Source: a virus
Taxonomy: Duplodnaviria > Heunggongvirae > Uroviricota > Caudoviricetes > Crassvirales
Direction: 5' to 3' (one strand)
DNA: 64,000 bases
IMG/VR virus record: IMGVR_UViG_2974731182_000001
Shown here: positions 21,774 to 59,072 of the stretch, piece by piece
Position numbering within the stretch: the first letter of the stretch is position 1
Layout of the letters: every line of letters starts with the position of its first letter
Program-made: the position numbers and the translations under genes
Notes under the pieces: generated by a model
What the model saw: the letters and a program-made list of their open reading frames with translations, nothing else
Told to the model about the DNA's origin: nothing
Databases searched by the model: none

Positions 21774-21788
21774 AAGAGATATTATTAT

Positions 21789-25460: not shown

Positions 25461-25463
25461 GGT

Positions 25464-40201: not shown

Positions 40202-40246
40202 GGGAGTAACGGAGAGATCTTGTTACTCCCTTAGTAATTTTTTTTT
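40202..40246 (+). terminator. Rho-independent terminator
   Basis: 9-bp stem GGGAGTAAC/GTTACTCCC, then T9 after a short spacer. Confidence 0.55.
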
Positions 40247-40436
40247 CTTCTTAAGGTCAAGGAAGAATTCAAAAGGCTACTTTATTCTGATAAAGTAAAT
40301 TAATATAAACATCTTAAAGGGGTTAGATGTAAATATATAAATTAACCTCTTATTTCTTCATACTGTAATTAGTAATCAAATTAATTGATGGTAACTTTCA
40401 CACTTAATATCTTGGTTTATTAAGGATAAATACTTA

Positions 40437-40444
40437 CCTTTGCT
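40437..40444 (+). promoter_or_regulatory. Candidate Bacteroidota-type -7 promoter element (TAnnTTTG) upstream of the giant RNAP-like gene
   Basis: TACCTTTG lies 27 nt upstream of ATG 40471. No clean -33 TTTG was found. Confidence 0.25.
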
Positions 40445-40470: not shown

Positions 40471-43400
40471 ATGAATAATTGTTTAGTAACAACTGAAGAG
40501 ATTAGGTACCTAACTAAGGAGTTACAAGATGAAACAGAGGAATCTGTAAAGGGTCTTGTAGCTTTGTGGCAAAAAGAGAATAATAAATCTATTGAAGAGT
40601 ATCCTACTGTAAGAGAACTTAATAATTTTAGATTTAAACTAAGAAGTGCAAATACAGTAGAGATGCTCGATGAAGCATTATCTCCTTCATTTGATGCTCC
40701 TAAGGTCTCTTCTATTGAAGAACAAGCTAAGGTTGATTTAGACTTTGATCCAAGAACAAGAAGAGATAGAGTAAGTCTTATTGCAAGGTTCTTTAGTAAT
40801 GAGGTAGATAAAGCACTACAGGAAATGAATGATTCTCTTAATAAGAGAATGGATACAGCTTCTGATGAAGAAAGATTACAATTACAGATGGAGTTAAGCT
40901 CCCTTAATAGATTTGATGCCATAAAGAAATACACCCCTGCTGGATTATTTGATAGAGTATTGGATATATTTCAATCCTATATCAACGATACAGAAGAGAA
41001 TAGAGTACAAATTGAACTTGGGGCAATAAATGCAAGAGAGCAGACATTAATTGATGAGGGTGTTATAGATGAATCTGAAAGATTCTCTGATGAACAAAAA
41101 TTGGATGCTGCAAGAAGAAAAGCTGTATATAAGGAACAAGCTTATAGAAAAGTTGTTGATAACTTTAAACCTTTGGCAGAAGAAGCTAGCACATTACTCA
41201 TAACGACAGAAGGAGTTAGAATTGACTTGAACTATATTGCTCCTAAAGATGCTAACTTAAATGATGATACTCCTGAAGGATACAGTGAGCTTGATGAGCA
41301 AGCTGATGATTATAATAAGGAAGAGACTTTTAAAGATGGCTGGATGACTAACTTTAGACAAGTTAGTTCCCATGAATCATTATCTCAAGCAGTTAGAAAA
41401 GTTATTAGGGAAATACCCAGGCTTGACTATGAAGGAATGTATGAGGAAGATGATTTGGGTAATCTAAGGTATTTAGATGCTGATTATGTTCATGCAACTC
41501 TTATTGATAAATTGAGAGATATGATTACTTCTGAAGATATGATTCCTCTTATACAGGAGCTTGAAAGGAATAAACCCTGGGTGGCTCAAGTAAGAGAATT
41601 ACTTGAGAAAGATGATACTCTATTTTCTCAGTTCTATCAAGATTTTAGAAAGGATTTTATACCCTATTGGATCCAGAAGAAAAAGACGATGCTTGATGGT
41701 ACATTCAAGATGCAAACCATTGCTATTAACAAGCCTGAAGGTGTATATTACCTTCTTGATGCTTGGAGAGATAACTATGAGAATGGTATGCAACTTGATA
41801 ATGATAGTGTATATGAGAAGAATGGGGACATAAATATTGAAAATGCTGAAAAAGGTCTTAAGTGGGTCGAAACTCTAAACAATAAATTCTCTAATTTGGA
41901 TACTGAAGCAAGATTAGAACTTCTTGAGGATGATAGGATCTGGAAAACTATACTAAAGCTGTTGAATATGATTGGTATTGATGCCAATCCCTCTATATTA
42001 AGAAATGCACTAACTGATATTAGAACTTCTGATACAGCTAAGTTTACTGACCCTATTATGGTCCTACTACCTCAATTGAATATTATATTCAAAGGAATCA
42101 AGAAGGGGGAAATAAAGTCAGAAACAGGAGAAGATGGAATAGAGAAGAGAGGAGACTTAATTAATACATTTGGTTCAGCTTATAGTGCAATTGCAAATAT
42201 GATGGCTAATGTAACTGAAGATGCTATTGAAAGTAGTGTTAGAGAGAATGATAAGTCTTATTACTCTCATGTCACCCCAAATTATCTTGGAAAGTTAATT
42301 AAACAGCTTAAGAATGTAAGAGGAGATAGGAAGAGATTTGAAGAATTTATTAATACTGAGTTTAAGCAATATGAGTGGTTCTTTAAAGATGGGAGATGGA
42401 GAAGTGACTGGTTAGAGCAACTGGTTAACTCTGAGGAAATGAGAAGAGGCCTAAATCATAAAGTAGTATTGAACTCTGATAAAGTGGACTACACTAACTG
42501 GGATGACTTAGATTATACCTTAGCACTTCTTACTGAGTATTGGGGAGACCCAGAAGATAGTAGAACAAGTGTGAAGTGGGCCTGGTATCATGTCCCTATT
42601 CTTTCAGATTCTCCTTCTGCTGAATTCATTAGATTCAGAAAATATGTAAGTGGAGTTGAATATGATGAGAATGGGAACAAGCTGACTTATGATGATATTA
42701 TCCTTGATAAACTAACTGATTTAGTCAATCAAGAATATGACAGAATAATGCTTGTCAGAGCAAGAGATGAGGAACTTCAAAATGGCAATCCAAACATCTC
42801 TCCTATAGCAAACTATGATATTGTCAGGAAGAAAGATGGAAGTATAAAGGGTATGGGAGGAGCTGAGTTCAAGTTCTTACCTGCACTTAATTCCATTAGA
42901 TATGATAATGGAGAGACATTCTTTGACAGATTAAGTAGGTTGAGTAGAGAGGGAAGTGGTGCTGAGTTGAAGGATTTTATCAGAGGTGCTCTTAGAGAAG
43001 TCATGGATAATGGTTTTGAAGAAGCATATAGAGATTGGGCAAGAATTGGTCTGCTTGGTGAACTGCCAAATGGGAGATATAAATATCTGCCTTTTGCAGG
43101 GCAAACACAGCAGAACTCAAGGACTGCAAAATCTCTTATTAAGGCTAAAGAGATTCTTGGCACTACTCTATGGACTACTGATATGGAGTTGTTATTGAAA
43201 GATTATAACAACAATAACCCAGTAGATGACAGAGTAGCTGCAAACCTATTTCAACAGATAAGGGATATGGTTACTCAAAGGGTTACAAGAGGTGATATTA
43301 CAAAGCAGGAAGCTGATAGTATCAATAGAAACCTTGTGGTAAAGAACAATGCAAAGGCTGCATTGAGAGAGTATTACTGGAATAGTAAATTAGCCACTTC

Positions 43401-46400
43401 TCAAATCATTGAATTGACTACTACTGATTTGGCATTCTATAAGAATGTAGAGGACTTTCAAAAGAGATATAAGGAGGTTCATGCCCCTGCTCTTAGAATG
43501 AATACCAAAGCAACTTATAAGGGTGAAAAAATTGGTAGAGATTGGGAAAGAACTATTTACTTGAAGGATGATGAGATTACCTCTTCTGTACTAAGTGACA
43601 TTGAGACAGTGATAATGGAAAAGTATAAGAAGGGAGAATTATCAGATTACAATGCTGCATCCATCCTATCTAAGTTTGGGTATTCTAATCATACTGTTAA
43701 AAGTAAAGATGGTCAGGAAAAGAAGTATGCTAAAGTAGGTAATACTATGGTAGAAACTTCTTATGTCAATGTTGCAGATGCACAGGCTTATAGAAGTCTA
43801 AGCTCTTACAGAACAATACTTGGCATGTCTGGTCAATGGACAGATGAAATGGAGCAGGCATATAACAATTTCAAGAATGGTACTTGGAACATTGCTGACT
43901 TCAATATTATCTGGCAGACTAAGAAACCTTATGTATATACTCAGGTTAATAACATGAGTGGTGTACAAGGTCATACAGGTATAAAGACTCCTGTACAGCA
44001 TAAGAACTCTGAGTTCCTATTACTTGCTATGCACGAATTAATTGCTGGACCTCTTGGCAAGTCAAGTAAGCTGAGAGCCATCAATGAGTTCATGGAAGAG
44101 GATAACATTGATGTAGTTCAATTTGAGTCTACTACTAAAGTTGGTAAGCAGGGAATTATTGACCTTAACCAAGTCAGTGATTTCAAGCAAGTGAAGGAGG
44201 TCTTGAAGAATGCTACTACACAAGATGGTGTGGAGAATCCTAATGTAGTTCATAAAGTAAGCTATGAGGATTATGGTATTCAGACTGCAACTCCTGAACA
44301 TGCTATTGATGCTGTACAGCTTGTAGGTACTCAGATTAGAAAGTTGATTACTGCTGATATTGCACCAGATGCCATTATTGAGGTTGATGGTAAAAAGATG
44401 ACCAAGCAAGAATGGCTGGATTTATATAATGCTGTTAACACTGAAAACATCCTTCAGGCATTCAGGGATGTAGATGATATATTCAAAGACCCTAAGAAGG
44501 TAGAGGAGATACTACTTGAAGAGATTAGAGGTAATCAGAGATATGGAATTGACATGATGAGAGCATGTACTCTTAATGAGAATGGTCAGTTCAATATTCC
44601 ATTATTTGACCCTGTACAATCTCAGAGAGTACAGACCCTTTTGAATAGTATCATCAAGAGCAGAATTACCAAGCAGAAGATTAGAGGTGGAGCATTAATT
44701 CAGGTATCTGATTATGGCTTGACTGATGAGCTTCATGTGGTATTTGAAGGAGAAGGTGAGAACAAGAGAATCAAGTATCTTGAATGTTATATGCCAGCTT
44801 ATTCAAGAGAGTTCTATGAGCCTCTTATGAAAGAAGGAACTCATGAACTTGACATCAACAAGTTGCCTGAAGACCTTAGAAAGTTGATTGGCTACAGAGT
44901 TCCAACAGAGGATAAGTATTCAATGGCTCCTCTGTATATCAAGGGATTCTTACCTCAACAGAATGGTTCTGCAATTATGCTCCCTGCTGAGATTACTACT
45001 CTATCAGGTTCAGACTTTGATGTGGATAAAATGTACATCATGTTGCCTGAATTTAAGGTAGAGAAGTTTGATTTCAGAAGAGCAAAGCAGGATTTCAAAG
45101 GTGAGCAAAGAATACTTGATGAATTGGCTTCTTTATTCAGAGAAGGCAGTCTGATGGATGACTTTGCAAATGCACCTGTAGAGTTTAAGGAATGGTTCAA
45201 AGAGAACAAGGAGAAGTACAGACTTGCTACACCTAAGATTAGGAAAGTAAAGTATGACTTTAATAAAGCCCCACAAGAGAATAGTCTTGAAGCAAGAAAT
45301 AACTTGATGATAGATATGATGTGGGGAGTTCTGACAAATGCAGATACAGCTTCTAAGATTCTTAACCCCGGTGGTTCTGATTATCAGAAGAAAGCTGCAA
45401 GAATTGTCAGTATCCTTAGTTCAAGTTATGAATCAGATTTGAGAAGGGATTTGAATATTCCTAATGGTTCAGTTATCACTAAGTTACTTTCAATGGATTT
45501 GGAAGAACTTGACAAACTTGCTGAAAGAACCAAGAGAAAACTTGACCCCATCTCTCCAAGAACTCAGGTACAACTTCACCAACAGAATATGACTGGTGCA
45601 AAGCTGATTGGTATATATGCAAACCATAATGCAAACCATGCTTTGATGCAGCATACTGAATTAGGTCTTGATGTGGAAAATGGCTCATTTGTATTGAATG
45701 GAAAGAGACTAACATCTCTACATGATATTATGAATAGAGACAAAGAGTTCATATCAAAGAATAATGCAGGTTTCTTGGCTGCATCTGTGGATAATGTGAA
45801 AGACCCTGTGCTGGCTGGTATTAACCAGAACACATTTACTGCTGATGCCTCTATGCTTCTTTCAAGACTTGGTTACAATCCTGTTGAAATAGGTCTGCTT
45901 ATGGCACAACCTATTATCATGGATATTACTCAGGCTTATTTCAGAGAGAGTAGAGAAGGTAAAGGTAAGGACACTGTGATTGATGAAATCCTTGTAGAAT
46001 ATAAGAAGAAGGCTGCAATGATGGAAGAAGTTACTTATGATAACTATAAGAATAATGACTTCCTAATTGAAGACCTTGCCAACAACATCCTTATTGCAAA
46101 GGAAATGGCAGGCATCACAAGTGCCCATCAGACTTCTGATTACAGTAAGGTTGAGTTCTACAAGAAACAAGTTGCTGTAGGATTCCTATTTAAGAGAATA
46201 ATGAGAACTGCTGATAGCCTTGGTCAGCTTGTGCAAGCTACAAGGTCTGATACTCAAGGTGGTGCAGCAGGTCCAACTATTGCTGATACAAAGCTCAAAA
46301 TCCAAAAGGTTCAAGACTTCTTGAAAGATATGGAGGAGAATGACAAGTTTCCACTTGTAGGGGCAGATGTAATCAGTGACAGTATTTCTCTTAATGATGA

Positions 46401-47766
46401 CATTGACAACATAAGAGAGCAATTGCTTGCAAGTAAATTGCCTTTCTTACAGGCATTCTACACACTTGGATTGAAGCAATCAGAGAGAATGTTAAGCAAG
46501 TATTTCCCTCAATTCACTGAGTCATTTGATGAGGTAGTTGATGTTCTTAGAAACATGACAAAGACAGGTAGATTAAATGTGAAGACTATGAATAGTATTT
46601 ACAATGATTTGCTTGCTTATATAATGTCTAAGACAGATTTCTTTGGTGCAGAACCTGATTGGAGTTCAGTAGATGAGAATGGTAATCCTACAAAGATGAT
46701 TACATCTGCTGACAAGAGAAGGGACTTCATCAATAATTTCCCAACTTACTTCAAGAAAGTGGTTGCAGAGAATGAGGATATAGCTGACCTTGAGTTTATT
46801 AAGAGACTTAGAGTGATAAGGGCAAATGATACAAATCCTGTGGACACTGTGGTGTTTAAGAATGTTGGTCAATTGAGTCCCACTCTAAGAGAAAGATATA
46901 TGAGAGACTGGACTTCTCTATTATATATGAGTAACCCAGAAGCTCAAAAGCTTGCTCTTAACTTATTCAGATACAGCTTCTACAGAAATGGCTTTGCATT
47001 TGGTCCTTCCACATTTATTCACTTGGCTCCTGTAGCTGTAAGAAATGCAGTTCCAGAGTACATTGAAACACTGAGAAGTCTCCTTACATCTGAGGATGAT
47101 TATAGTAACTTTGTTGAACAGTATATCTATAATCACCTTGATAATAGAAAGCTTGTTCCTGAAGTTCCCGATGATACCTCAACTTCATTTATAGGTGAAG
47201 ACAATGAGATTAAGGATGAAGTTACATTTGTAATAGATGAAAATGCAAACTTTGGAGATAAAAAGATTATCAGGAAGAGAATTGATACTCCTGATGGTCC
47301 TGTATATGATTTCTTTGATTTCATTGCGAGAAGAAACAAAGGTGGATATATTTATTACAGATTAACTACAGACAGAGTTGATGAGTCTAATGTCGCAGTT
47401 TATAGAAGAATTGAACCATTAGGATTCAGAAACAGTTTCATTGAATATGAGTATAGAAAGGAAGCAAGTGAAGTAACTTCTGCTATCGAGAAAAACAAAA
47501 AAGATTATAATTCTAACGCTACTATTGATGAGACATTTGCTTCTTATGATACTCCTCAAATGACAGAAGAAGACTTGGCCAACTATGATATATATAGAGA
47601 ATCGTTCAGTGAAGACACTTTGAATCAAGCTTATGAGAGTGTTTATGGTACTCCTCTTGAAATACCACAAGGTCCTGAGAATGATGTAACATCTATTCAG
47701 CCTAATGTGGAATACAAGGATGAGAATGGTGACAGTATTTGTGGTGCAACAAATTTATTAAGTTAA
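40471..47766 (+). CDS. giant virion-packaged RNA polymerase-like protein (crAss-like vRNAP homologue candidate)
   Basis: 2431 aa. 'LSGSDFDVDKMYIML' resembles the universal catalytic DPBB motif of multisubunit RNA polymerases and of QDE-1-like enzymes (NADFDGDQM). The size and position next to other giant virion genes match crAss-like vRNAP. Confidence 0.6.
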   Translation: MNNCLVTTEEIRYLTKELQDETEESVKGLVALWQKENNKSIEEYPTVRELNNFRFKLRSANTVEMLDEALSPSFDAPKVSSIEEQAKVDLDFDPRTRRDRVSLIARFFSNEVDKALQEMNDSLNKRMDTASDEERLQLQMELSSLNRFDAIKKYTPAGLFDRVLDIFQSYINDTEENRVQIELGAINAREQTLIDEGVIDESERFSDEQKLDAARRKAVYKEQAYRKVVDNFKPLAEEASTLLITTEGVRIDLNYIAPKDANLNDDTPEGYSELDEQADDYNKEETFKDGWMTNFRQVSSHESLSQAVRKVIREIPRLDYEGMYEEDDLGNLRYLDADYVHATLIDKLRDMITSEDMIPLIQELERNKPWVAQVRELLEKDDTLFSQFYQDFRKDFIPYWIQKKKTMLDGTFKMQTIAINKPEGVYYLLDAWRDNYENGMQLDNDSVYEKNGDINIENAEKGLKWVETLNNKFSNLDTEARLELLEDDRIWKTILKLLNMIGIDANPSILRNALTDIRTSDTAKFTDPIMVLLPQLNIIFKGIKKGEIKSETGEDGIEKRGDLINTFGSAYSAIANMMANVTEDAIESSVRENDKSYYSHVTPNYLGKLIKQLKNVRGDRKRFEEFINTEFKQYEWFFKDGRWRSDWLEQLVNSEEMRRGLNHKVVLNSDKVDYTNWDDLDYTLALLTEYWGDPEDSRTSVKWAWYHVPILSDSPSAEFIRFRKYVSGVEYDENGNKLTYDDIILDKLTDLVNQEYDRIMLVRARDEELQNGNPNISPIANYDIVRKKDGSIKGMGGAEFKFLPALNSIRYDNGETFFDRLSRLSREGSGAELKDFIRGALREVMDNGFEEAYRDWARIGLLGELPNGRYKYLPFAGQTQQNSRTAKSLIKAKEILGTTLWTTDMELLLKDYNNNNPVDDRVAANLFQQIRDMVTQRVTRGDITKQEADSINRNLVVKNNAKAALREYYWNSKLATSQIIELTTTDLAFYKNVEDFQKRYKEVHAPALRMNTKATYKGEKIGRDWERTIYLKDDEITSSVLSDIETVIMEKYKKGELSDYNAASILSKFGYSNHTVKSKDGQEKKYAKVGNTMVETSYVNVADAQAYRSLSSYRTILGMSGQWTDEMEQAYNNFKNGTWNIADFNIIWQTKKPYVYTQVNNMSGVQGHTGIKTPVQHKNSEFLLLAMHELIAGPLGKSSKLRAINEFMEEDNIDVVQFESTTKVGKQGIIDLNQVSDFKQVKEVLKNATTQDGVENPNVVHKVSYEDYGIQTATPEHAIDAVQLVGTQIRKLITADIAPDAIIEVDGKKMTKQEWLDLYNAVNTENILQAFRDVDDIFKDPKKVEEILLEEIRGNQRYGIDMMRACTLNENGQFNIPLFDPVQSQRVQTLLNSIIKSRITKQKIRGGALIQVSDYGLTDELHVVFEGEGENKRIKYLECYMPAYSREFYEPLMKEGTHELDINKLPEDLRKLIGYRVPTEDKYSMAPLYIKGFLPQQNGSAIMLPAEITTLSGSDFDVDKMYIMLPEFKVEKFDFRRAKQDFKGEQRILDELASLFREGSLMDDFANAPVEFKEWFKENKEKYRLATPKIRKVKYDFNKAPQENSLEARNNLMIDMMWGVLTNADTASKILNPGGSDYQKKAARIVSILSSSYESDLRRDLNIPNGSVITKLLSMDLEELDKLAERTKRKLDPISPRTQVQLHQQNMTGAKLIGIYANHNANHALMQHTELGLDVENGSFVLNGKRLTSLHDIMNRDKEFISKNNAGFLAASVDNVKDPVLAGINQNTFTADASMLLSRLGYNPVEIGLLMAQPIIMDITQAYFRESREGKGKDTVIDEILVEYKKKAAMMEEVTYDNYKNNDFLIEDLANNILIAKEMAGITSAHQTSDYSKVEFYKKQVAVGFLFKRIMRTADSLGQLVQATRSDTQGGAAGPTIADTKLKIQKVQDFLKDMEENDKFPLVGADVISDSISLNDDIDNIREQLLASKLPFLQAFYTLGLKQSERMLSKYFPQFTESFDEVVDVLRNMTKTGRLNVKTMNSIYNDLLAYIMSKTDFFGAEPDWSSVDENGNPTKMITSADKRRDFINNFPTYFKKVVAENEDIADLEFIKRLRVIRANDTNPVDTVVFKNVGQLSPTLRERYMRDWTSLLYMSNPEAQKLALNLFRYSFYRNGFAFGPSTFIHLAPVAVRNAVPEYIETLRSLLTSEDDYSNFVEQYIYNHLDNRKLVPEVPDDTSTSFIGEDNEIKDEVTFVIDENANFGDKKIIRKRIDTPDGPVYDFFDFIARRNKGGYIYYRLTTDRVDESNVAVYRRIEPLGFRNSFIEYEYRKEASEVTSAIEKNKKDYNSNATIDETFASYDTPQMTEEDLANYDIYRESFSEDTLNQAYESVYGTPLEIPQGPENDVTSIQPNVEYKDENGDSICGATNLLS

Positions 47767-47772
47767 TAAGAT

Positions 47773-50700
47773 ATGTCAAGAAATTGTGCAATTATTCCTC
47801 AAGTAAGAAACAATAAAGATCAGATAGTAGACAGTAGGTTATTCAAAGACCTACTGGCCTACACTGGCAATAACAGAGCAGAAACTACCAGACTTTATTT
47901 AATTACTAAGAGTAGTGAATTTATTAAGGATTGGAATCCAAGACTAACTTTAGATGAAAACAATGAGCCCACACTGAGAAGTCTTTTACAAAAGACCAAT
48001 TTTAGTGATATTATTCCCGAGTCAAAAGTACTTGAAAGACTCAATAGAGAAATAGGGTACTATAAGAGGGGAATGGATAGACCTGCTCTTTGGGTAAATA
48101 ATGATGAGAACTACCAGAAGTTACTACAGAAGGTAATTTCATTCAATCAAACTTCAGATTTCAGGGATGATTATGTAGCTAAGATTATTAAGATTCAGGA
48201 CACTGAATCCCCAAGAATCTTTATAGGAGTAAAGGTTGAGAAAAGAAATAGACTTAACTCAATTGATGCTGACAAAATGGCATATAATGCCAATCTTAAT
48301 AGTAGATTAAGAGACATTTTGGCAGCTAATGGCATTGCAGTAGGTGCTCTTACAGACCTTGAGAAGAGGATGGGAATCAATGGTGTAACTGACTTTGATG
48401 TGGCAAGAACTGCTGCTAATGGAATGATTGAGATGATTAGATTGGCTAATGGTATTGAGGGAGAAAAAGCTCTTCCTGAAGAGTTTGCTCACTTTGCTAT
48501 TGAAGCAATGGGAGAGTCCCCCCTTATCAATAGATTGATTAATAATCTCAGTTCAAGTGGTCTTATAGGTGAAATACTTGGTGATGAGTATGAGACCTAC
48601 AATACTCTCTACAAAGGTGATACTGCAAAGTTAGCTAAAGAAGCAGCAGGTAAATTACTTGCAAAGCACTTATTGAAGTCAGAGCCTATAGGACAGAAAC
48701 CCTACAAGAATTTATTAGAGAGAGTAATCTCAGCTATTAAATCCTTCTTCAAGACCATAAATGTCAACCAGATACAAAAAGCTATATATGAAGCAGATAA
48801 AGATTTTGGTAGATTAGCAAGGGATATCCTTAATGGTAGAATGGATGAGGAGATAAGTATAGATAATATCAAGTCATCTGATCTATTCTATCAAACCAAT
48901 GAAAGAATTCAAAGAGATAGAAAAGTACTACAGAATATTATTAATAATGAGCTTAAAAGACTTAAGATTTATGAAAAGAGAAATCCTAATAGTCAATTTA
49001 GTACCAATCAAAGGCTCCTTATTGATAGACTAGAAATGGAGCTATATGATAACAATGAAATTGAAGGAATTTACTCTTTTCTTGATAATGCTCTTGAAGA
49101 GTTACAAAAAGTAAGTTACAGACTTGAATTACTAAGGGATACTCCGGCAACTAATGTAAATGAGAGAGCTTCTGTATTAAGGGATGTGAGGAATTATATG
49201 TACTCTTATAAGAATATTATAGAGGACATAAGGAAGGCACTAGTGGATGAAGAGAGATATGATGACAATAGGTATGGTCAAAGAGTGAGAGTATTATTAA
49301 ATGATACTTCTAACTTGCTTGGAGACTTATTTGTTAAATATAATAGTGTGTCTATGCCATTATTTGTAGACTTTATCAAACCTTTTGTAGGAGAAAATAT
49401 TATGATACCTTTTGGCAAATTTAAGGGTAAAGTAATTAAGGCCGAGGATTTGGTGAAGATGGCTGATAAGGATATATCTTTCTTTGATAGATGGCTGGAT
49501 AGTATGGCAGATTCTTCGGATTATATGTTAAAGGTAATGGATCAAGCTGTCAAGAAGAGTAAAGAACAGGCAAGATCAAGAACCATTGATGTGATGAAAC
49601 AATTACAGGCTGCTACTATCAAACTTGAAAAGGCTGGTATTAAGAATACTGACTGGATGTTTGAGAGGGATAGTAAGGGTAATTTAAGTGGTAATTACAT
49701 CTCTGAAATCAATCAAGCCCTGTTCAAGGAGAAAGTAAGGGAAATGTTCAAATCTCTTAATGAGAAGTATGGAAAGAACCCTGTTGGTGAAAATGCTGAG
49801 AAGTATAAGAAAGAAAGACAAGCTTGGTTTGATGCCAATATGGAAATAGTCAATGGTAAGAAAGTACCTAAGATGTCAATCTATGGTAATAAGCAATACC
49901 AAAGACTAAATGCAGCTCAGAAAGAGTATTATGATACAGTGATGAACATTAAGTCCCAGTTGGATTCTTATTTGCCTGAGAAGTACACTACACTTACTAA
50001 TGCTGTCAAGATAAGAAAGGACTTACTTGAGAGAGTTAAGTCATCTGATGGTGTGAGGTCAGGGGCAAAGCAGATATGGAAAAGTATCAAGGATGAGTTT
50101 ATTAGAAGAACTGATGATGTGGACTTTGGAGACAGAGCTACAGTGAAGGACTTTGAAGGCAATGAGGTACAGACTCTTCCTATATACTTTACTAAACTGA
50201 AAGAGGGAGAAAGTGCAAATGACTTGTCTACTGACATTGTAAGTACTCTCACAGCCTATGCTGCAATGGCTAATGACTTTGATGAAATGAACAAGGTTAT
50301 TGATGTGCTTGAATTAGGTAGAGACTTGTTAAGAGAAAGGCAAGTAATTCAAACTCAAGGGGGTAAGCCACTTGTAGAAAAGTTCAAGGCAGTAGGTAGA
50401 AAGGTTGAGAGTAAATTAACCAAAGAAGGAGAAGCTACAAGATTTGTCCAAAGACTGAATGACTTCTTTGAAATGCAAGTATATGGAAGATACATGGCAG
50501 ATGAAGGTACATTTGGCAAGACAAATATTGATAAGGGTAAAGTTGCTAACTTTGTAAATAGAGTTACTTCTATGAACAACTTAGCACTCAATGTTCTTTC
50601 AGGTATTTCCAATATAGCTACTGGTAAAGTGATGATGAGAATTGAGTCATTTGCTGGTGAGTTCTTCAATGAGAAGAATACAATTACTGCTGATAGGATA

Positions 50701-51810
50701 TATGGTCAATCTCTTCCTGCATATCTTGCTGAGATAGGCAATAGAGTAAAGACAAGCAAACTTGCCCTATGGGATGAGTTGTTCAATGTAATGCAGGAAT
50801 ATGAGCAGGATGTCAGAGAAGTGAACTTTGATAGGAAGACTTGGTTCAGCAGAATGTTTGGCACATCTACATTATTCTTTATGAATAATGCAGGAGAACA
50901 CTGGATGCAGAATAGAACTTCTTTAGCATTAGCAGATGCTTATAAGATGAAAGCTCCTAATGGTAAGATTGTTAGTCTATGGGATGCCATGGAGGTAGTA
51001 CCTATTGATAAAAATAATAAGAAACTAGGGGCTAAACTTCAATTAAAGCAGGGTTATAAAAAAGCTGATGGTTCTGATTTCACACAAGATGATATTATTA
51101 AATTTAGTCGAAGAAGTGCTGCGATTAATCAGAGAATGCACGGTATTTATAATAAAGCTGATAGATCTGCAGTGCAGAGATTGGCTATTGGTAGAATGGG
51201 TATGATGTTTAGGAAGTGGATAAAACCATCTTTGAATAGAAGATTCAAATCAGCTTCATATAACTATGACTTAGATGCTTGGACTGAAGGTTATTATAGA
51301 ACGAGTGGTAGATTTCTATTGCAGCTTGCAAGAGATTTAAGAGAGACTCAATTTAATATTGCCGCTAGGTGGAATGAACTTACTTCTACTGAAAAAGCTA
51401 ATATAAAAAGAGCCTTAACTGAAACAGGGCATTTCTTAGCAGTAATGGCTATTATAGGTCTCATTGAGTGGTCTGATGATAAGGATAGGCCATGGCTAGT
51501 CAGAATGACTGAATACCAGATGAGAAGATTATATACTGAATTAGGTGCTATGATACCTGGAAAATCTATGATTTCAGAAGGCTTAAAGATCATTAAATCT
51601 CCTGCTGCTGGTGTAAATACAATAGAAAATATACTGGATTTAACTAAATTACTCAATCCTTGGAACTATACAGATGAGATACAATCAGGCAGATATGAAG
51701 GACATAGCACAACATATAAGTCATTCTTTGAATCTCCTGTAATTCCAATGAATAGAACTATATACAGGGGATTACATCCAGAAACAGGAATTCCATTCTT
51801 TAAACAATGA
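47773..51810 (+). CDS. large virion-associated (cargo/ejected) protein
   Basis: 1345 aa, 6 nt downstream of the vRNAP-like gene, same operon. Confidence 0.55.
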   Translation: MSRNCAIIPQVRNNKDQIVDSRLFKDLLAYTGNNRAETTRLYLITKSSEFIKDWNPRLTLDENNEPTLRSLLQKTNFSDIIPESKVLERLNREIGYYKRGMDRPALWVNNDENYQKLLQKVISFNQTSDFRDDYVAKIIKIQDTESPRIFIGVKVEKRNRLNSIDADKMAYNANLNSRLRDILAANGIAVGALTDLEKRMGINGVTDFDVARTAANGMIEMIRLANGIEGEKALPEEFAHFAIEAMGESPLINRLINNLSSSGLIGEILGDEYETYNTLYKGDTAKLAKEAAGKLLAKHLLKSEPIGQKPYKNLLERVISAIKSFFKTINVNQIQKAIYEADKDFGRLARDILNGRMDEEISIDNIKSSDLFYQTNERIQRDRKVLQNIINNELKRLKIYEKRNPNSQFSTNQRLLIDRLEMELYDNNEIEGIYSFLDNALEELQKVSYRLELLRDTPATNVNERASVLRDVRNYMYSYKNIIEDIRKALVDEERYDDNRYGQRVRVLLNDTSNLLGDLFVKYNSVSMPLFVDFIKPFVGENIMIPFGKFKGKVIKAEDLVKMADKDISFFDRWLDSMADSSDYMLKVMDQAVKKSKEQARSRTIDVMKQLQAATIKLEKAGIKNTDWMFERDSKGNLSGNYISEINQALFKEKVREMFKSLNEKYGKNPVGENAEKYKKERQAWFDANMEIVNGKKVPKMSIYGNKQYQRLNAAQKEYYDTVMNIKSQLDSYLPEKYTTLTNAVKIRKDLLERVKSSDGVRSGAKQIWKSIKDEFIRRTDDVDFGDRATVKDFEGNEVQTLPIYFTKLKEGESANDLSTDIVSTLTAYAAMANDFDEMNKVIDVLELGRDLLRERQVIQTQGGKPLVEKFKAVGRKVESKLTKEGEATRFVQRLNDFFEMQVYGRYMADEGTFGKTNIDKGKVANFVNRVTSMNNLALNVLSGISNIATGKVMMRIESFAGEFFNEKNTITADRIYGQSLPAYLAEIGNRVKTSKLALWDELFNVMQEYEQDVREVNFDRKTWFSRMFGTSTLFFMNNAGEHWMQNRTSLALADAYKMKAPNGKIVSLWDAMEVVPIDKNNKKLGAKLQLKQGYKKADGSDFTQDDIIKFSRRSAAINQRMHGIYNKADRSAVQRLAIGRMGMMFRKWIKPSLNRRFKSASYNYDLDAWTEGYYRTSGRFLLQLARDLRETQFNIAARWNELTSTEKANIKRALTETGHFLAVMAIIGLIEWSDDKDRPWLVRMTEYQMRRLYTELGAMIPGKSMISEGLKIIKSPAAGVNTIENILDLTKLLNPWNYTDEIQSGRYEGHSTTYKSFFESPVIPMNRTIYRGLHPETGIPFFKQ

Positions 51811-51835: not shown

Positions 51836-51876
51836 AGATAAAAAAAGGAGGAACAATATTCCTCCTTTTTTTTTGC
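51836..51876. terminator. Bidirectional intrinsic terminator between convergent giant genes
   Basis: A7 - GGAGGA - loop - TCCTCC - T9. It functions on both strands. Confidence 0.7.
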
Positions 51877-51908: not shown

Positions 51909-54900
51909 TCAGATGGCTAGACATGCAATAGCTTGATCTCTCTCGGCTATAGAGATAGAGTCAAATTGCTCTTTAGTCCATCCCTTATTAAGTAACTGCA
52001 TTTGAATATCTGAATCTAAAGAATCAAATAACAACTCAATTCCTGTAGATTTTCTAAGCCTATTCAATTCTCTTTCCTTATATTTATTAAACATCGGAAT
52101 AGTTAACAGTTGAATTTTATGACCTACAGCATTATTGGCTCCTTTTCTAGTAATTCTATATAAAAATTCTTCTCTTATATTACTATCACGGAAGGCTCTC
52201 ATGGCTGCATCTACGGTATAATAGGTTTTATAATTGAGTTTTCTCACCTCTTCATTAGCCTTCTTGAATTCATCATTCAATGTTTTTTCCAGCTCTTCTG
52301 GAGATACTATTCTATTCCTAGATTGATTAATTAAGGAAATATCAAGTTTATCTCCAGCATATTTGCCCTCATTTATCATCTGATAATAAGCAATAAGATG
52401 TGGCTGTATCCTATTCCAATTTGTTACCTTTACATATAGGTCCCTAAAGAAATTTTTTATCCTATTAAAAAGTCCTTCAGCTTGCCTAGTTTGCATATAT
52501 TCTCTAAAGCCTTCTGCCATATCCTCCTCAAGATCCAACTCAGATTTATCTCCATACATTTCTCTAGCCTCAGCTAATAATCCTTGCCTTTCTGTTTGGT
52601 CCAGAAGGAGGTTGAAAACAACATGGAATGCTTCATGATAGACAGTTCCTTCTGCAGCTATATCAGATAGAGTAACTATACCATTGTTAAATTGCCCCCA
52701 AGCTAAAGTTCCTTGGCTACCAACTCTAATAAGGCCTTTTACTACTCTTATTCTGTCATCTTCTGATAATTTAGGAAGTACCTTTCTTATCCAAGCAAGT
52801 TCCTTTTCTTGGTTCCAAATACCTCTTACTCCACTATCTACTTCTCTTAATTTATGTCTGGTTCTTGAAGCTTTTCTATTATTTACAGTTTGTTCAGCTT
52901 GAGCTGCTTTAGCTGCTCCAGACTCAGTAGAGGTGGATAATATATTAGCAGGAGTCTCAGGTTTAGGTACTTCAACTGCAGGAGCAGATGAAGGATCGAA
53001 TATAAGAGTTTTCTCATTTGATATATCTAGCACTCTCTGAGGATTACCATTAAGTATCTTCCTGATAGTATCCTTAGCTTGCTGTTCAGTAAGAGTCATT
53101 GGGTCATTCTTAATAAGAGTAATTGAATTACCATTAGGAAATATCGCCATATATGAATTACTTGCAACATGAGCTTCTTCACCCTGTCTACCAAATCCCT
53201 TAGTTATATTAGGTATCTTAGCCATATACACATCAACACCATTCACTTTACCAATAGGAGTTAAGTAGCTCTTATGCAACTTACTATCTCTTACGAAATA
53301 GCCTACTTTGCTATCCTCAAGACTATATTCAGGAAGTACATTATTAATAGGATCTTGTGTTTCAAGAGCACTATTAAAGACTGGTACTGTTGAATTAGTA
53401 GAAGTAGGCTCACTTGCTTTTACAGCACCTACTAATGGCACATTAACACTAGGATTATAAGTAATTATTATACCCTTCTCCTTTGTTACTCCCTCAACAA
53501 TATCCTTATTATAGCTAGTAACAAATGGTAAAATAGCAAGTGTTGTAACAGGAGCATGATACTGAGACTCAAATAGATTTTTGTATGCAGATAATTGTAG
53601 AGTATAATAGTCTCTAGTACTTATTCTTTGAGTGGCTGATGGATTAGTAAAGTAATTTACTTTGTTACCATATCTATCTATAAAGTCATAAAAACTATAC
53701 CTACTTGTTTTTACATCATATATTCTAAAATTTCCATCTGCATCAACTGAAAGAATATCAACTTCTCCTGCAACTCTTGTTCCATCAGCATACTTTTGAA
53801 ATAGTACAATATTATTAGTTAAAAATCTCTCACCTCTTGATTCAATATTAGATCTAATTTCTGTAAGTGAAGAAATTAAGTCTGCAAAGGCTTTCTCATT
53901 CATATTATCAGGTCTTATAGGGGTATCATTCGATGTAAAGAAGTTCCTGATTACACTATCTACGGCAGTGCCAGCATTTAGAGCTCTCTGTGACTTAGTT
54001 TCAGACATACTATCCCTTATAATGTTTACAATAGTATCTCTATTTCTTACATCAATCTTCCCACTAAAAGCACTTAAATCAACTTTCCAGTGATTACCTA
54101 AATACTTCAAATAGTTATTATACTGAGTAACATTATCTGATAATTGAGATAATTTTACTCTTATATCTTTGAGAGAATCAGACTGTTTCTTTGACTCAAC
54201 CCAATTACTTCCTAATCTATTATGTACTCTTTCATATGCATGATACTGGCCATCTTCCTCAAGTATATAGTAGAATTCACTATCAGTTCTTGCCTTATCT
54301 ACTTTCTTTTGGTTCTCAGCTATTTGTGCTATGACTTTCTTACTATCTCCTACAGTTCTTTCTCTTCCAGCAATCTTATCTTTAACCTTCTGAGCATTTT
54401 CACCTGTTAAATATTTTTGAGTTCCTCTATCTAATACCTGACCACTTGGTAATAGAATTCTGTTATTCCATATCAAAGAGCCATTGGTAGCATCACCAAA
54501 GTTAGCATTTGCCCAAGCTAAGTCACTGATTAATTGAGCATTTTCAGGATATATTCTCTGATTATTACTATCGTATATAATACCAGTAGTTAAGTCTACT
54601 CCATAAGTAACACCATCAATAACCACCTTAGTACCTGTGATAACACCTTCAGTTCCACCTACAGGGGTTTCTATCTTCCTTGTAGTATCTGGAGATATGG
54701 ATGCAAGACTTATAGCTTGATGTAGGTTACCCTCTATATCAAAGTAATCAGTAGTAAACCAACTACTTATTACCCTTGCATCTGAGATATTTGATGTAAG
54801 TACATTAGAATTGATAAGCATATTATTGTACCCACCTTTATTCAACATACCTAGATTCACTTGAAGGAGTAAATTGAAGTCAAGAAGAATTTCCCTTATT

Positions 54901-57900
54901 TCCTTCGAGATATCATCAATATTTTTTAAAGCAGGTCCTGTCTGTATCTCCTTATCTCCTATAATAGAATATAGAGTATTTTGGTCCCATTTTTCAGTCA
55001 AGAATACTGTTTTTACAGTCTCCTTCCTTATCCTTTTACCATCTTTCTCTTCATATATCTCATTACCTTGAGCATCTCTTTGTACTTTAGTAAATCTAAT
55101 ACCATTACCTGCATCTGATGTAAACCAATCAATATGCAAATCTCCAGTGTAAAGGTTAGTTGAAAGAGACTTTACTGCATTATTTAAGTCATCTTCACTC
55201 AATGAATTAGCAAGTGCTTCAATAGACTCCTGTATATTTTTATACATCTGTGCGCTTTGTATTTCAATATCATCAGGATTGAATTCAGTTTTATTGAAGT
55301 GCTTCACTCTTAAAGCAGCAGGTGAATATTTACCAGCAGCATTAGGAATAAGTAGATACATTCTACCCTCTTTTTGAGCCATATCTACTGGTTTGATAAT
55401 AAGACTATCATCTATTTTACCATTAGTAGAAAGAGTACCATTCTTGATTATACCAAAGATAGGTTCTCTACCTTCCCCTAATACATTAGGTATATTAGCC
55501 AAGCTTCTTTCCTCAGTACTATAAGGTATTCTACCTACCATTATTTGTGATACTCTTGTGGTAGGAGTAGCAATGAATTTCTTAGTTTTATCACCTCTTT
55601 GTGCAAATTCAGCTTTTATCTTCTCTTCAAGACCAGCAAGACCTTCATATCTACTTACTGAATAGTCAGATTCGTCAAGACTACCTACAATCTGATTGTT
55701 TCTTCTATCTACAATGAAAATTGTATGGTCATTGAATTCAGGGTCAATCATAAATCCAAGCTCATCACCTACCTTTAGATTACTCTCATTCACATAAGTA
55801 AATGCACCATTATCTTTTAGATAGTTATATAACTCATCAAAATTTACCCCATGCTCCCTTTCAGCAGCTACTATATTGAATGGTCTAAAATCTCCCTCCT
55901 TGCTTGCTTGAATATGCAGTTCAGGTATTGAAGGTCTATAATAAGGCCTTTTACCCTTTTGTTTACTATCAAGTGATTGTGGAGTCTCTATTCTGTCATT
56001 AGTTTCCTTATTCTCATCTCTTACTTGAGTTGAAGTTATATTACCTGCAGGAGGCTCATAAGTAGTAACAGGAAACCCTCCAGTATCAACTGAAGGAATA
56101 GTAGAGGTTTCACTATCTCCTGTAGTGTCTTTTGTAGGAGCTGAAGGATTTGGTTTACCTTTTTCCCTTAATGTTCTATAATCTTGTGAGAATCTATTTT
56201 TAAATCTATTTTCATTATTGACTTGATTCATTGCTCTGAGAAGAGCATATTGAGCCTCTTGAAATTTAATAGTATTCTCCTCAGGAGTTAAATTGTCATC
56301 ATATAAAGCATACGAGTTATCAATATATATAGAGTTAGGATTTGCTATCTCTTCTAAATTAGAAGAGTTCTCAAATTGGTCTTGAAGAAGTTTAAGAGCA
56401 TCCATTTTAATATCTGGACTTTCATTGAGAGAATTAATTACTCTTTGTACTTCTGTATTATATGAGTTTGTTTCTTCATAATTCTTAGATATCTCATTAC
56501 CTTCATCCTCAAGAGATTTAAGTGTTTCTTCTTTTATAGCAATATCTTCTTCCTCATTAAGAGCCTGCCTAAACTCAGATAAATTAGTAGCTGAAAGTAA
56601 CTTACTCTTTAGATTATCAGATTTTCTCTTAGATTCCTTCTTAGCAACCTCCTCAGTAGAGGATACTATGTCTTCTTGAAGTTTAGTAGGATTCTCAAGA
56701 TACTCCTTTAGTTTAGTATTATAATTAGCAGTTGCATTTACTAACTTCACAATATCATCAATCTTTTCATTGAATACTTGTGCATCATCAGCAGCTACAC
56801 CACTAAGAGGACTTTCTACTACTGACTTGATTCCCTCTACTAACTTAGGATCTTTTGATAAAAGATAAGTAAAGGTTTTATCATCAAGATTTCTTACAGT
56901 CTCAAGGATAGACATGTTCTTTCTTATCTGCCTTTCATTCTTATCAGCAGAATTATACAAATCAGTTAATCCTGCATGAGCTCTACCTTCCTCAGTCTTA
57001 ACTGAATTATACATATTAGCAAGCTGAGACATACTTCCTAATATAGTACCTATAGTAGGTTTAATCTCACTTGAAAGTTGATTAGCCCTATCCTGCCAAT
57101 TACCAATTTGAGCTTTTAGCCATGTTAATTCTTCAAGCTGTTCATCATTTAACTGTTGTCCTGTTCTTACATCAATATCATCTTTAATCTTAGTATAGCT
57201 TGTGATAGTATTAAGCATCTCATCTTTTGTTTGAGTCAGCTTATCTATCATTTCCTGCTTTCCTTCTGGAGTACTATACATGGGATTACCATTTCTGTCA
57301 ATAAATGGACCAACTTTAACTTCTTTACCACTTTCATCAGTTATAGTGGAAGTAGTATTTTCAACTATAGATGCAAGGTTTTCATCAGAGGTATCATAGG
57401 CGGCATTAACTAGAGTAGTTAAATCCTCAAGTTTTCCCGCATTATCAAACATCGCAATATCAGAAACTAACTGAGCATATTCAGCATTTTTGAACTCAAA
57501 CTCATTATTCTCTTCTACAGCCTGGTTCATATCAGTTTGATATTTATTATGTCTAATGAGCCCTTGGTAATAATTCTTGAATTCAGGAGACTGAACTCTA
57601 TTGTTCATATAATTAGCTATTTCAGTCTCTCTGTTTATCTTATCCATATACTCCCTAAATCCACCATAGATTCCTCCCTCAAGAGTAATAGGAGACTGTA
57701 ATCTACCATCACTACTTCTCACTCCTCTGAATCTAGGCATGCCAAGAGCTCCAGTAAGAGTACCTATAAAAAATTCTTCCCAAGATGATCCATCATTCAC
57801 TGTTTCATTAATTCCTTGAGCAAAGGATTTTATCCAACTTAATGTCTCTTGTTCAGCTTGCGGATCTATTTTAGCTTTATAGAAATTGTTTACATCATCT

Positions 57901-59072
57901 TCGTAATAATTACCGGATATTCTACTTGCTGCTCCTTGTGAAATCTCTTCAAGACCTTCAGAGAGGGCTCCCATAGTAGATTTAGCTACCCCTCTACCTA
58001 TAGTTCTTTTAGTAGTATATTCTCCAGCTTCTCCAACTATGTTAGTTGCCTTTCTTGCTGTCTTAAATCCATTAGCATACATCTTACCGAACTGGATAAT
58101 ATTAGAAGCTGTAAGTACTGGTAGGTTCATCAATAGATCCATATTACCCATCTTCAATCTATCTTCAGTTAATCTACTGATAGACGATGAATGAGCCTCT
58201 TGTAGAGCTAGACCTAATTCACTTATATTCCCAGTTAAAGTAATAGTACCATCTTCTCCTCTCACATAAGATTGACCTATAGCATCTAATCTACTAGTAT
58301 AATCATCATCGATCTGTGCTTTCTGTAAATTAAACCAATCAGTTGAATTATTTAATGCTTCTATTCTACCTTCATTAACAGCAGATGCTACAGCTCCTAC
58401 TCCAGATGTTACAAGCTTTGGAGCTTTTGAGCTCTTTGTTATAGCACCTATTATTTGAGGTAGCCCAGTTGATTTCAAGGTCTTAGAGATGAGATTACCT
58501 CCATAAAAAGCTCCTACTGTAAATCCTAGGTTTTTTATAAACTTGTCCCCTATAAAGTTGGCAGTAAATATATTATCATACCAAGGGCCTTCTTGCTCTT
58601 CTCTGGTGTAGTAATTGGGAAGGGCTTCTTCAGCCCACTCATTAACTGACTGTAATGCTTTATCAAAGGGATTATCCCATAGTCCTGACCATCTTCCTTC
58701 CTCTATAGCTGTTTTAGCACCAAACAATAATCCAAGAGTACCACTTAAGAATGTAGTACCTGCTAGAACTGCACCTTTAGCTAAACCATTTGATATTTGA
58801 GAATACCAGGGTTGTAACTCTCCCCTGGTATTTTCTAAATCTTGTAATTGAGTAAGAGAAGTTATACCTCTATCGAAATAAGAATCTCCTACTCCTACCT
58901 CTCCAACCTCTTGAATTATAGGTTCTGGAGATGCAGCCTTTCTCATTTTATATTCTGGTATACTCCTACTATATCCAAGTTCATCTAGATATCTATTTAT
59001 CCCTTCAGTGGTATTTAAACCTTTTAATCCAGAAATTCCCCTTTTAGAAGGATCATTTATTCCATTTGCCAT
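51909..59072 (-). CDS. giant virion structural/ejected protein with zincin-like HExxH motif
   Basis: 2387 aa; 'GTVYHEAFHVVFNLL' (HExxH) near the C-terminus; long low-complexity S/T/N-rich stretches. Confidence 0.55.
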   Translation of the reverse strand: MANGINDPSKRGISGLKGLNTTEGINRYLDELGYSRSIPEYKMRKAASPEPIIQEVGEVGVGDSYFDRGITSLTQLQDLENTRGELQPWYSQISNGLAKGAVLAGTTFLSGTLGLLFGAKTAIEEGRWSGLWDNPFDKALQSVNEWAEEALPNYYTREEQEGPWYDNIFTANFIGDKFIKNLGFTVGAFYGGNLISKTLKSTGLPQIIGAITKSSKAPKLVTSGVGAVASAVNEGRIEALNNSTDWFNLQKAQIDDDYTSRLDAIGQSYVRGEDGTITLTGNISELGLALQEAHSSSISRLTEDRLKMGNMDLLMNLPVLTASNIIQFGKMYANGFKTARKATNIVGEAGEYTTKRTIGRGVAKSTMGALSEGLEEISQGAASRISGNYYEDDVNNFYKAKIDPQAEQETLSWIKSFAQGINETVNDGSSWEEFFIGTLTGALGMPRFRGVRSSDGRLQSPITLEGGIYGGFREYMDKINRETEIANYMNNRVQSPEFKNYYQGLIRHNKYQTDMNQAVEENNEFEFKNAEYAQLVSDIAMFDNAGKLEDLTTLVNAAYDTSDENLASIVENTTSTITDESGKEVKVGPFIDRNGNPMYSTPEGKQEMIDKLTQTKDEMLNTITSYTKIKDDIDVRTGQQLNDEQLEELTWLKAQIGNWQDRANQLSSEIKPTIGTILGSMSQLANMYNSVKTEEGRAHAGLTDLYNSADKNERQIRKNMSILETVRNLDDKTFTYLLSKDPKLVEGIKSVVESPLSGVAADDAQVFNEKIDDIVKLVNATANYNTKLKEYLENPTKLQEDIVSSTEEVAKKESKRKSDNLKSKLLSATNLSEFRQALNEEEDIAIKEETLKSLEDEGNEISKNYEETNSYNTEVQRVINSLNESPDIKMDALKLLQDQFENSSNLEEIANPNSIYIDNSYALYDDNLTPEENTIKFQEAQYALLRAMNQVNNENRFKNRFSQDYRTLREKGKPNPSAPTKDTTGDSETSTIPSVDTGGFPVTTYEPPAGNITSTQVRDENKETNDRIETPQSLDSKQKGKRPYYRPSIPELHIQASKEGDFRPFNIVAAEREHGVNFDELYNYLKDNGAFTYVNESNLKVGDELGFMIDPEFNDHTIFIVDRRNNQIVGSLDESDYSVSRYEGLAGLEEKIKAEFAQRGDKTKKFIATPTTRVSQIMVGRIPYSTEERSLANIPNVLGEGREPIFGIIKNGTLSTNGKIDDSLIIKPVDMAQKEGRMYLLIPNAAGKYSPAALRVKHFNKTEFNPDDIEIQSAQMYKNIQESIEALANSLSEDDLNNAVKSLSTNLYTGDLHIDWFTSDAGNGIRFTKVQRDAQGNEIYEEKDGKRIRKETVKTVFLTEKWDQNTLYSIIGDKEIQTGPALKNIDDISKEIREILLDFNLLLQVNLGMLNKGGYNNMLINSNVLTSNISDARVISSWFTTDYFDIEGNLHQAISLASISPDTTRKIETPVGGTEGVITGTKVVIDGVTYGVDLTTGIIYDSNNQRIYPENAQLISDLAWANANFGDATNGSLIWNNRILLPSGQVLDRGTQKYLTGENAQKVKDKIAGRERTVGDSKKVIAQIAENQKKVDKARTDSEFYYILEEDGQYHAYERVHNRLGSNWVESKKQSDSLKDIRVKLSQLSDNVTQYNNYLKYLGNHWKVDLSAFSGKIDVRNRDTIVNIIRDSMSETKSQRALNAGTAVDSVIRNFFTSNDTPIRPDNMNEKAFADLISSLTEIRSNIESRGERFLTNNIVLFQKYADGTRVAGEVDILSVDADGNFRIYDVKTSRYSFYDFIDRYGNKVNYFTNPSATQRISTRDYYTLQLSAYKNLFESQYHAPVTTLAILPFVTSYNKDIVEGVTKEKGIIITYNPSVNVPLVGAVKASEPTSTNSTVPVFNSALETQDPINNVLPEYSLEDSKVGYFVRDSKLHKSYLTPIGKVNGVDVYMAKIPNITKGFGRQGEEAHVASNSYMAIFPNGNSITLIKNDPMTLTEQQAKDTIRKILNGNPQRVLDISNEKTLIFDPSSAPAVEVPKPETPANILSTSTESGAAKAAQAEQTVNNRKASRTRHKLREVDSGVRGIWNQEKELAWIRKVLPKLSEDDRIRVVKGLIRVGSQGTLAWGQFNNGIVTLSDIAAEGTVYHEAFHVVFNLLLDQTERQGLLAEAREMYGDKSELDLEEDMAEGFREYMQTRQAEGLFNRIKNFFRDLYVKVTNWNRIQPHLIAYYQMINEGKYAGDKLDISLINQSRNRIVSPEELEKTLNDEFKKANEEVRKLNYKTYYTVDAAMRAFRDSNIREEFLYRITRKGANNAVGHKIQLLTIPMFNKYKERELNRLRKSTGIELLFDSLDSDIQMQLLNKGWTKEQFDSISIAERDQAIACLAI

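Follow-up and report, generated by a model that had tools for sequence, protein, structure and literature searches.

The question raised by the 64,000-nucleotide (nt) stretch of viral DNA analysed here (IMG/VR record IMGVR_UViG_2974731182_000001, called the window throughout) is whether two very long open reading frames (ORFs), 40471-47766 and 47773-51810, belong to a virion RNA polymerase (RNAP) cassette of the kind known from crAss-like phages. A sequence-only reading had proposed this, largely from one short motif, for a span that is exactly that of the two ORFs. Our answer is that the first ORF, encoding a protein of 2431 amino acids (aa), very probably specifies the virion-packaged, single-chain, two-barrel RNAP of phage cr128_1, with the infection cycle set out below as part of that account; what carries it is the homology, the motif, the fold, the gene context and the statistics of a promoter pattern, all observed for cr128_1. 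Megablast with the RNAP ORF gives a 100% match to MT774392.1/NC_055885.1 at unchanged coordinates, and the window as a whole is likewise 100% identical, position for position, to this record of CrAssphage cr128_1 (human faeces, Ireland; Crassvirales; Steigviridae; Asinivirinae; Mahlunavirus rarus), which bears out the assignment to the crAss-like lineage. In that record, 40471-47766 is labelled “putative RNA polymerase,” and the label “putative RNA-polymerase subunit” stands on both 47773-51810 and the minus-strand gene 51909-59072. Since the gene is annotated there, the feature was public before this analysis: its genome is deposited, a crystal structure and biochemistry exist for the family, and the polymerase call is correct, ordinary and already known, with nothing new on the polymerase itself. 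The more useful lesson is that reading a motif with no tools at all sufficed to recognise a crAss-like virion RNAP, and that this recognition fixes the phage lineage and the likely host phylum. To this we make modest additions: the probable extent of the cassette (40.4-63.4 kb), about ten Bacteroidota-type promoters and, in relatives, group I introns within the catalytic motif or next to it.

Identity of the 2431-aa protein

The string GSDFDVDKMY, on which the sequence-only reading was built, is indeed present in the protein. A bare DFDxD motif is weak evidence, and the notion of a chance match within some non-polymerase structural or fibre protein could draw on two points: given the composition of a protein of this size, 0.057 occurrences are expected, and scans of Pfam and PHROGs return no match to it. 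Among all stop-free six-frame segments in the window that are 60 aa or longer, DFDxD occurs just this once. What gives DFDVD its significance is homology and not the motif alone, and the blank Pfam and PHROGs scans do not count against an RNAP because both libraries lack a model. When the protein was compared by phmmer with all PDB sequences, the sole match was 6VR4, phi14:2 gp66 (E 1.3e-24), and the match rose to E 3.3e-38 with a 40-sequence family profile. The phmmer alignment runs from 1097 to 1872 of the query against 970 to 1724 of the 6VR4 chain, with weak collinear segments on both flanks; within it GSDFDVDKMYIMLPEFKVE pairs with gp66 GSDFDIDKMYVMLPNFKVE, GSDFDVDKMY lies on the catalytic GSDFDIDKMY, and DFDVD falls on gp66 1361-DFDID-1365 (gp66 numbering being that of the 6VR4 chain minus a 14-residue tag). 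This homology, together with the fold comparison that follows, refutes the chance-match explanation, to which we give practically no credence.

For the fold, an alignment-based AlphaFold model of aa 1041-1900 was used (predicted local distance difference test [pLDDT] 62); a single-sequence model of the same residues, at pLDDT 36, was discarded. Compared with the PDB by Foldseek, the modelled core matched 6vr4_A at E 7.5e-15, with bacterial beta' chains and QDE-1 ranked below it, none significant. Thus the protein has the two-barrel, double-psi beta-barrel polymerase fold, and a lack of similarity to such enzymes, which the sequence-only reading had named as the outcome that would count against it, was not what emerged. 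Of the two comparisons which that reading had recommended, the one with gp66 gave a match in both sequence and fold; QDE-1 was reached by fold comparison but not by the sequence profile, which reached neither QDE-1 nor the cellular RNAPs. The virion RNAP of coliphage N4 is a T7-like single-subunit polymerase, not a two-barrel one, and similarity of that type was not found here: N4 chains were non-significant in Foldseek (3c3l, E 1.1; 2po4, E 8.3) and gave no sequence match in the phmmer search of the PDB. As a functional analogue, the N4 enzyme (Schitoviridae) is described in PMC13434306 as giant, carried in the capsid, co-ejected with accessory proteins and responsible for early transcription.

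The conservation pattern points the same way. In a MAFFT alignment of five divergent orthologues (cr128_1, crAss001, cr85_1, phi14:2 and p-crAssphage), 157 columns are invariant, among them the DFDVD aspartates, and the dense invariant blocks are IGYR-P (1473-1478) and GSDFD-D (1513-1519). Each aspartate of the gp66 DFDID is essential, and all crAss-like RNAPs have I or V at its fourth position; gp66 itself is a Mg2+-dependent, rifampicin-resistant, DNA-dependent RNAP (Drobysheva et al., bioRxiv 10.1101/2020.03.07.982082, from which the gp66 domain limits in Table 1 are also taken). The DFDVD of the 2431-aa protein follows the I/V rule and is in register with gp66 D1361, D1363 and D1365. By tblastn, homologues were found in 142 phage records, whose names and hosts are those of crAss-like phages of Bacteroidota hosts.

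Could the protein be a catalytically dead homologue, retained solely as a scaffold or cargo that is ejected? Activity of the cr128_1 protein is a prediction, and in the gp66 crystal the motif itself holds a conformation unable to bind Mg2+, so the thought has some basis. Against it, conservation extends to the three aspartates, to V at position 4 and to the segments aligned to the bridge helix and trigger loop, even though that last part was modelled poorly (model residues 666-728 at pLDDT <50). Moreover, in the intron-bearing allele of a close relative (contig L008, discussed below) the exons are 98-99.5% identical and the intron is apparently complete, which is consistent with selection for function. 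We regard a dead homologue as very improbable, and a two-barrel RNAP predicted to be active remains our reading.

Among the closest known systems is crAss001, whose Gp50 is 68.7% identical to the 2431-aa protein and whose gene order and convergent strand arrangement are the same (PMC6235969, PMC10172136). The two phages differ in genus (Kehishuvirus for crAss001, Mahlunavirus for cr128_1) and in an extra small gene, Gp48, that crAss001 has between the convergent units; and while crAss001 virions have been analysed by mass spectrometry, cr128_1 is uncultured and known from its genome alone. The more distant gp66 of phi14:2 is about 24% identical and 251 residues shorter, and its N-terminal cleft-blocking region aligns poorly with the cr128_1 protein. 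In phi14:2 the three giant genes are co-directional, whereas cr128_1 has the third of them on the other strand; the host of phi14:2 is a marine Cellulophaga, and that of cr128_1 presumably a gut Bacteroidales bacterium. Further afield, QDE-1 of Neurospora and the largest subunits of cellular multisubunit RNAPs have no detectable sequence similarity to the cr128_1 RNAP, carry G rather than V at position 4 of the motif, and have no counterpart for some 1,600 of its residues.

Table 1. Coordinates in the window of the RNAP gene, its parts and the surrounding cassette
Feature	Position	Strand	Details
Terminator-like hairpin and T9 run	40202..40230 and 40238..40246	+	Closes the upstream replication-gene unit; RNA fold
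Bacteroidota-type promoter candidate	40412..40442	+	TTG (40412-40414), 20-nt spacer, TACCTTTG (40435-40442); 29 nt before ATG
Virion RNA polymerase gene (very probable)	40471..47766	+	2431 aa, ATG start; orthologue of phi14:2 gp66 and crAss001 Gp50
Region aligned to gp66 Connector (gp66 1095-1238)	44266..44697	+	aa 1266-1409, between the two barrels; MAFFT, five orthologues
Empty group I intron insertion site	44901..44902	+	Codon junction V1477|P1478, within the invariant IGYR-P block
Catalytic metal-binding motif DFDVD	45013..45027	+	aa 1515-1519 (D1515, D1517, D1519); DNA GACTTTGATGTGGAT
Region aligned to gp66 bridge helix (gp66 1529-1559)	45553..45633	+	aa 1695-1721; homology only
Region aligned to gp66 trigger loop (gp66 1598-1636)	45736..45864	+	aa 1756-1798; conserved VDNxKDP; homology only
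Second giant virion protein (predicted)	47773..51810	+	1345 aa, ATG; orthologue of crAss001 Gp49 and phi14:2 gp65 (KC821624 gp076)
EEFAH (EExxH) in the 1345-aa protein	48478..48492	+	aa 236-240; motif scan and MAFFT, seven family members
Bidirectional intrinsic terminator between the convergent units	51840..51872		Stem of 14 bp with an A run on one side and a T run on the other
Third giant virion protein (predicted)	51909..59072	-	2387 aa; orthologue of crAss001 Gp47, 50% identity; multidomain
HEAFH zincin-type motif of the 2387-aa protein	52623..52637	-	aa 2146-2150, near the C-terminus
PD-(D/E)XK-like nuclease region of the 2387-aa protein	53529..54008	-	aa 1689-1848
Predicted cargo protein, orthologue of crAss001 Gp46 (C2)	59084..60799	-	35% identity, E 3e-99
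Predicted cargo protein, orthologue of crAss001 Gp45 (C1)	60801..63365	-	45-49% identity, E 6e-108
Two overlapping TTG-N20-TAnnTTTG promoter candidates	63384..63425	-	Head of the minus-strand cargo operon; 19 and 30 nt upstream of start 63365

Extent of the cassette and nature of its other giants

The RNAP gene sits beside other genes for giant virion proteins, in what has been described for the Crassvirales as a “transcription gene block” (PMC7886860). The sequence-only reading had placed a cassette of ejected proteins at 40.4-51.8 kb. A cassette is there, but as predicted from orthology it does not end at 51.8 kb: it runs from 40.4 to 63.4 kb, in the form of two convergent operons (40471-51810, plus strand; 63365-51909, minus strand), because the minus-strand genes are orthologues of crAss001 gp47, gp46 and gp45, all of them virion cargo. 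In crAss001, mass spectrometry found Gp50, Gp49, Gp47, Gp46 and Gp45 alike as virion cargo (PMC6235969, PMC10172136); presence in the virion is documented for the RNAP orthologues of both phi14:2 (tandem mass spectrometry) and crAss001 (Gp50). Gp45 and Gp46 have been proposed to build an ejection channel, Gp45 being the putative transmembrane channel former (PMC10172136), and the split-strand layout of the cassette in this phage group was already noted by Shkoporov et al. (PMC6235969). The boundary between the convergent units is marked by a strong bidirectional terminator that folds at -18.2 and -17.9 kcal/mol on its two strands (z -4.9 and -4.1), and there the GC skew changes sign. On the plus strand, the gene for the 1345-aa protein starts 6 nt past the RNAP stop and is therefore probably co-transcribed with it.

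The 1345-aa protein is 72% identical to crAss001 Gp49 and matches phi14:2 KC821624 gp076 at E 1e-34. The latter is encoded directly downstream of the phi14:2 RNAP, is a structural protein verified by mass spectrometry, and is equated here, from its gene position, with the published gp65. No Pfam, PHROG or PDB sequence match was found for the 1345-aa protein. Orthologues of gp65 are said to carry a zincin-like domain, perhaps one that activates the RNAP or digests peptidoglycan (bioRxiv 10.1101/2020.03.07.982082). The 1345-aa protein has no zincin HExxH, and Pfam finds no peptidase family in it. Its EEFAH falls in the same N-terminal region as HEIMH at aa 245 of phi14:2 gp65, and EExxH recurs in that region of the crAss001, cr106_1, IAS virus and phi4:1 gp035 proteins. 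An equivalence of HEIMH and EExxH would be an inference only, because MAFFT did not put the two in one column, and pairwise phmmer connected neither the surroundings of HExxH in the 2387-aa protein with those of EExxH in the 1345-aa protein, nor either of them with those of HExxH in phi14:2 gp65; a sub-region of phi14:2 gp65 gave a sub-threshold SprT-like match in Pfam (E 0.027). From position and conservation, then, EEFAH may be a variant zincin motif.

The 2387-aa protein has the intact version, HEAFH, which is kept as an HExxH in crAss001 Gp47, and in p-crAssphage the neighbouring gene is annotated “RNAP associated protein/zincin protease fusion.” Upstream of this motif in the protein is the nuclease-like region, which matches phrog_298 (exonuclease, E 3.4e-7) and, as a sub-region, PDDEXK_1 at E 3.3e-4, just below the Pfam cutoff. 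With EExxH in one giant and HEAFH in the other, a zincin module seems to have been moved or modified among the giants of the cassette. In a relative (contig L016, 13363-14880, minus strand), a gp47-like protein of 2773 aa has a precomputed Pfam match to ART-PolyVal, the ADP-ribosyltransferase of polyvalent proteins; the match is consistent with the giants being polyvalent ejected effectors.

Are the two neighbouring giants nevertheless true subunits of an obligate multi-subunit RNAP, as the GenBank labels imply? Linkage speaks for it, in that the three giant genes stay together across the Crassvirales, all three are found in the virions of both crAss001 and phi14:2, and in p-crAssphage LMMB the RNAP and the homologue of the 1345-aa protein are fused in one ORF of 4070 aa. 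Recombinant gp66 is, moreover, reported to transcribe genomic DNA when it is single-stranded and denatured, so that accessory factors could still have a part to play on native templates. Yet gp66 by itself holds both barrels and is catalytically active, and neither accessory protein shows a resemblance to an RNAP subunit or a solved structure. The 2387-aa protein, with its nuclease-like and zincin-like modules and the ART-PolyVal match in a relative, looks like a polyvalent ejected effector. A further case is the Cellulophaga phage phi4:1 (KC821632.1), a Lightbulbvirus outside the Crassvirales. Its gp035 (locus 7702-13446; 1914 aa), a structural protein verified by mass spectrometry, is collinear with crAss001 Gp49 in two regions (domain E 1.7e-9 and 2.8e-4), and the tblastn search with the RNAP gave two Cellulophaga records, with no phi4:1 among the matches listed. 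A gp49-like protein in a phage with no RNAP match argues for a role in ejection or as an effector over that of an obligate RNAP subunit. We consider the multi-subunit explanation unlikely, and the label “subunit” on the 1345-aa protein doubtful. Our own proposal has two parts and is put forward tentatively, as somewhat less likely than not: the neighbouring giants would be polyvalent ejected effector or ejectosome proteins, and in Steigviridae the catalytic centre of the RNAP gene would have been invaded repeatedly and independently by group I introns and homing endonucleases, with cr128_1 keeping the uninvaded sites.

The crAss001 literature names the polymerase differently. In PMC8375218, gp49 is called the predicted catalytic subunit, and in PMC10172136 the gp66 crystal structure is cited as that of a gp49 homologue. 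In our comparisons it is crAss001 Gp50 (19486-26724) that carries DFDVD (aa 1483) and matches 6VR4 at E 6e-32, and Gp49 (15434-19483) has no PDB match; sequence comparison thus identifies Gp50, not Gp49, as the crAss001 homologue of gp66.

Transcription signals and the proposed infection cycle

The consensus recognised by the primary sigma factor of Bacteroidota consists of TTTG at -33 and TAnnTTTG at -7. The sequence-only reading had pointed to a terminator and a -7-like element ahead of the RNAP gene as Bacteroidota-type transcription signals, and its promoter suggestion is supported once the -33 and -7 boxes are taken together. The -7 element by itself is at chance in the window (TAnnTTTG, 78 found against 75.5 expected), but the composite TTG-N19-21-TAnnTTTG is enriched between genes: 10 of its 15 matches in the 95-kb genome are intergenic, where intergenic DNA makes up 9.2% of the genome (binomial P 8e-8). 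Every one of these intergenic matches has a spacer of exactly 20 and shares the strand of the gene that follows it; nine of the ten are 19-32 nt upstream of the gene start. Only the composite TTG-N20-TAnnTTTG is informative, not TAnnTTTG by itself. The candidate before the RNAP gene, the sole plus-strand one among the intergenic matches, has CTTG at -33, three of the four bases of the box. A scan with the sigma-70 consensus, which is irrelevant for Bacteroidota, was likewise at chance (56 found against 53.4 expected).

As for the terminator, the hairpin and its T9 run are supported by folding (-16.6 kcal/mol, z -2.7), but the hairpin was passed over by the consensus terminator scan, an omission which we attribute to its long loop and to the 7-nt gap before the T run; with that gap it is not a textbook intrinsic terminator. 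Hairpins occur at the same relative place 5′ of the RNAP gene in crAss001 and cr85_1, and in both phages, as in cr128_1, hairpin and then TTG-N20-TAnnTTTG precede the orthologous gene, in sequence that has diverged. In the published picture, the virion RNAP transcribes the early genes and the host RNAP the middle and late ones; by RNA-seq, gp49 and gp50 of crAss001 are middle-class genes and gp47 is a late one (PMC8375218). The order of hairpin and promoter fits this division.

For packaging, ejection, enzymatic activity and timing, the account of the cr128_1 RNAP is read across from its relatives and would run as follows. In the middle-to-late phase the host RNA polymerase would make the RNAP from the TTG-N20-TACCTTTG promoter, and would express both cargo operons. 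The RNAP would be packed in the capsid in a self-inhibited state with the 1345-aa and 2387-aa proteins and the two smaller cargo proteins. Along with this other cargo it would then leave through the tail in a partly unfolded state, either before the DNA or together with it. Once refolded, the RNAP would transcribe the early genes of the phage independently of the host enzyme, with the catalytic Mg2+ predicted to be held by D1515, D1517 and D1519 between two double-psi beta-barrels that the connector links.

Introns in the polymerase gene and elsewhere

The window carries an uninterrupted RNAP allele. In some relatives the gene is interrupted; the site that is empty in cr128_1 lies 37 codons upstream of DFDVD. 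Two contigs, L008 and L009, have a 901-nt insertion exactly at the equivalent of 44901|44902 (7675-8575 and 5079-5979, respectively), in RNAP genes that are 99.5/97.9% (L008) and 87-94% (L009) identical to that of cr128_1 in nucleotides. The insertion in L008, the copy used for the Rfam scan, contains an HNH_3 endonuclease ORF and matches Intron_gpI (54.4 bits, E 9e-13; gathering score 50); the same 181-aa HNH_3 ORF is found in L009. The endonuclease ORF of the insertion has a promoter-like TTG-N20-TATCTTTG of its own. In contig L016 (~5082-6000) the RNAP is split in the same way, with an HNH_3 ORF between the fragments; C-terminal fragments of this type are 959-960 aa long and ~72% identical, the length that crAss001 numbering predicts for the same site. 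Many relatives in databases appear as RNAP fragments of 1477 and 947 aa (in a listing from a 5.8-billion-protein collection, with no protein >1505 aa), which gene callers produce because the intron interrupts the RNAP gene.

Bajarodcaudo virus 1 (PQ006092.1, contig L011, ~4751-5668) has another group I-like intron with an endonuclease ORF, this one inside the motif itself (DFD|VD), so that exon 1 ends in GSDFD and exon 2 begins with VDKMY; in Rfam it is recovered as two pieces, at 47 and 32 bits, which fall just short of the gathering score of 50. Taken with the 901-nt insertions, it suggests that the RNAP catalytic region is a homing hot spot, with intron invasions that appear to be independent.

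The rest of the window yielded minor observations at its left end. A tRNA-like element at 2120-2191 on the minus strand scores 48.9 bits in Rfam (gathering score 29); it was not called by ARAGORN and is unannotated in the GenBank record, where the only tRNAs are two tRNA-Arg(TCT), at 6978-7050 and 7205-7277. Gene-free stretches of more than 1 kb lie at 5213-6321 and 7278-8467, between the minus-strand genes (55-3871) and the replication module; in phi14:2, long non-coding intergenic regions near the early genes are highly transcribed. An unannotated group I intron is found at 8221-8490 on the plus strand (Rfam 86.1 bits, E 1.6e-20), in a 1.2-kb stretch without an annotated gene, and is abutted by an HNH/endonuclease VII-like gene at 8468-9028 (minus strand); the small ORFs flanking it gave no PHROG match, and no interrupted host gene was identified. 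Outside the window, at 73757-76913 of NC_055885.1 (14758-17914 of contig L007), the gene for the major capsid protein is annotated in three pieces, with genes for an HNH endonuclease and a homing endonuclease between them, which suggests further introns in the cr128_1 genome.

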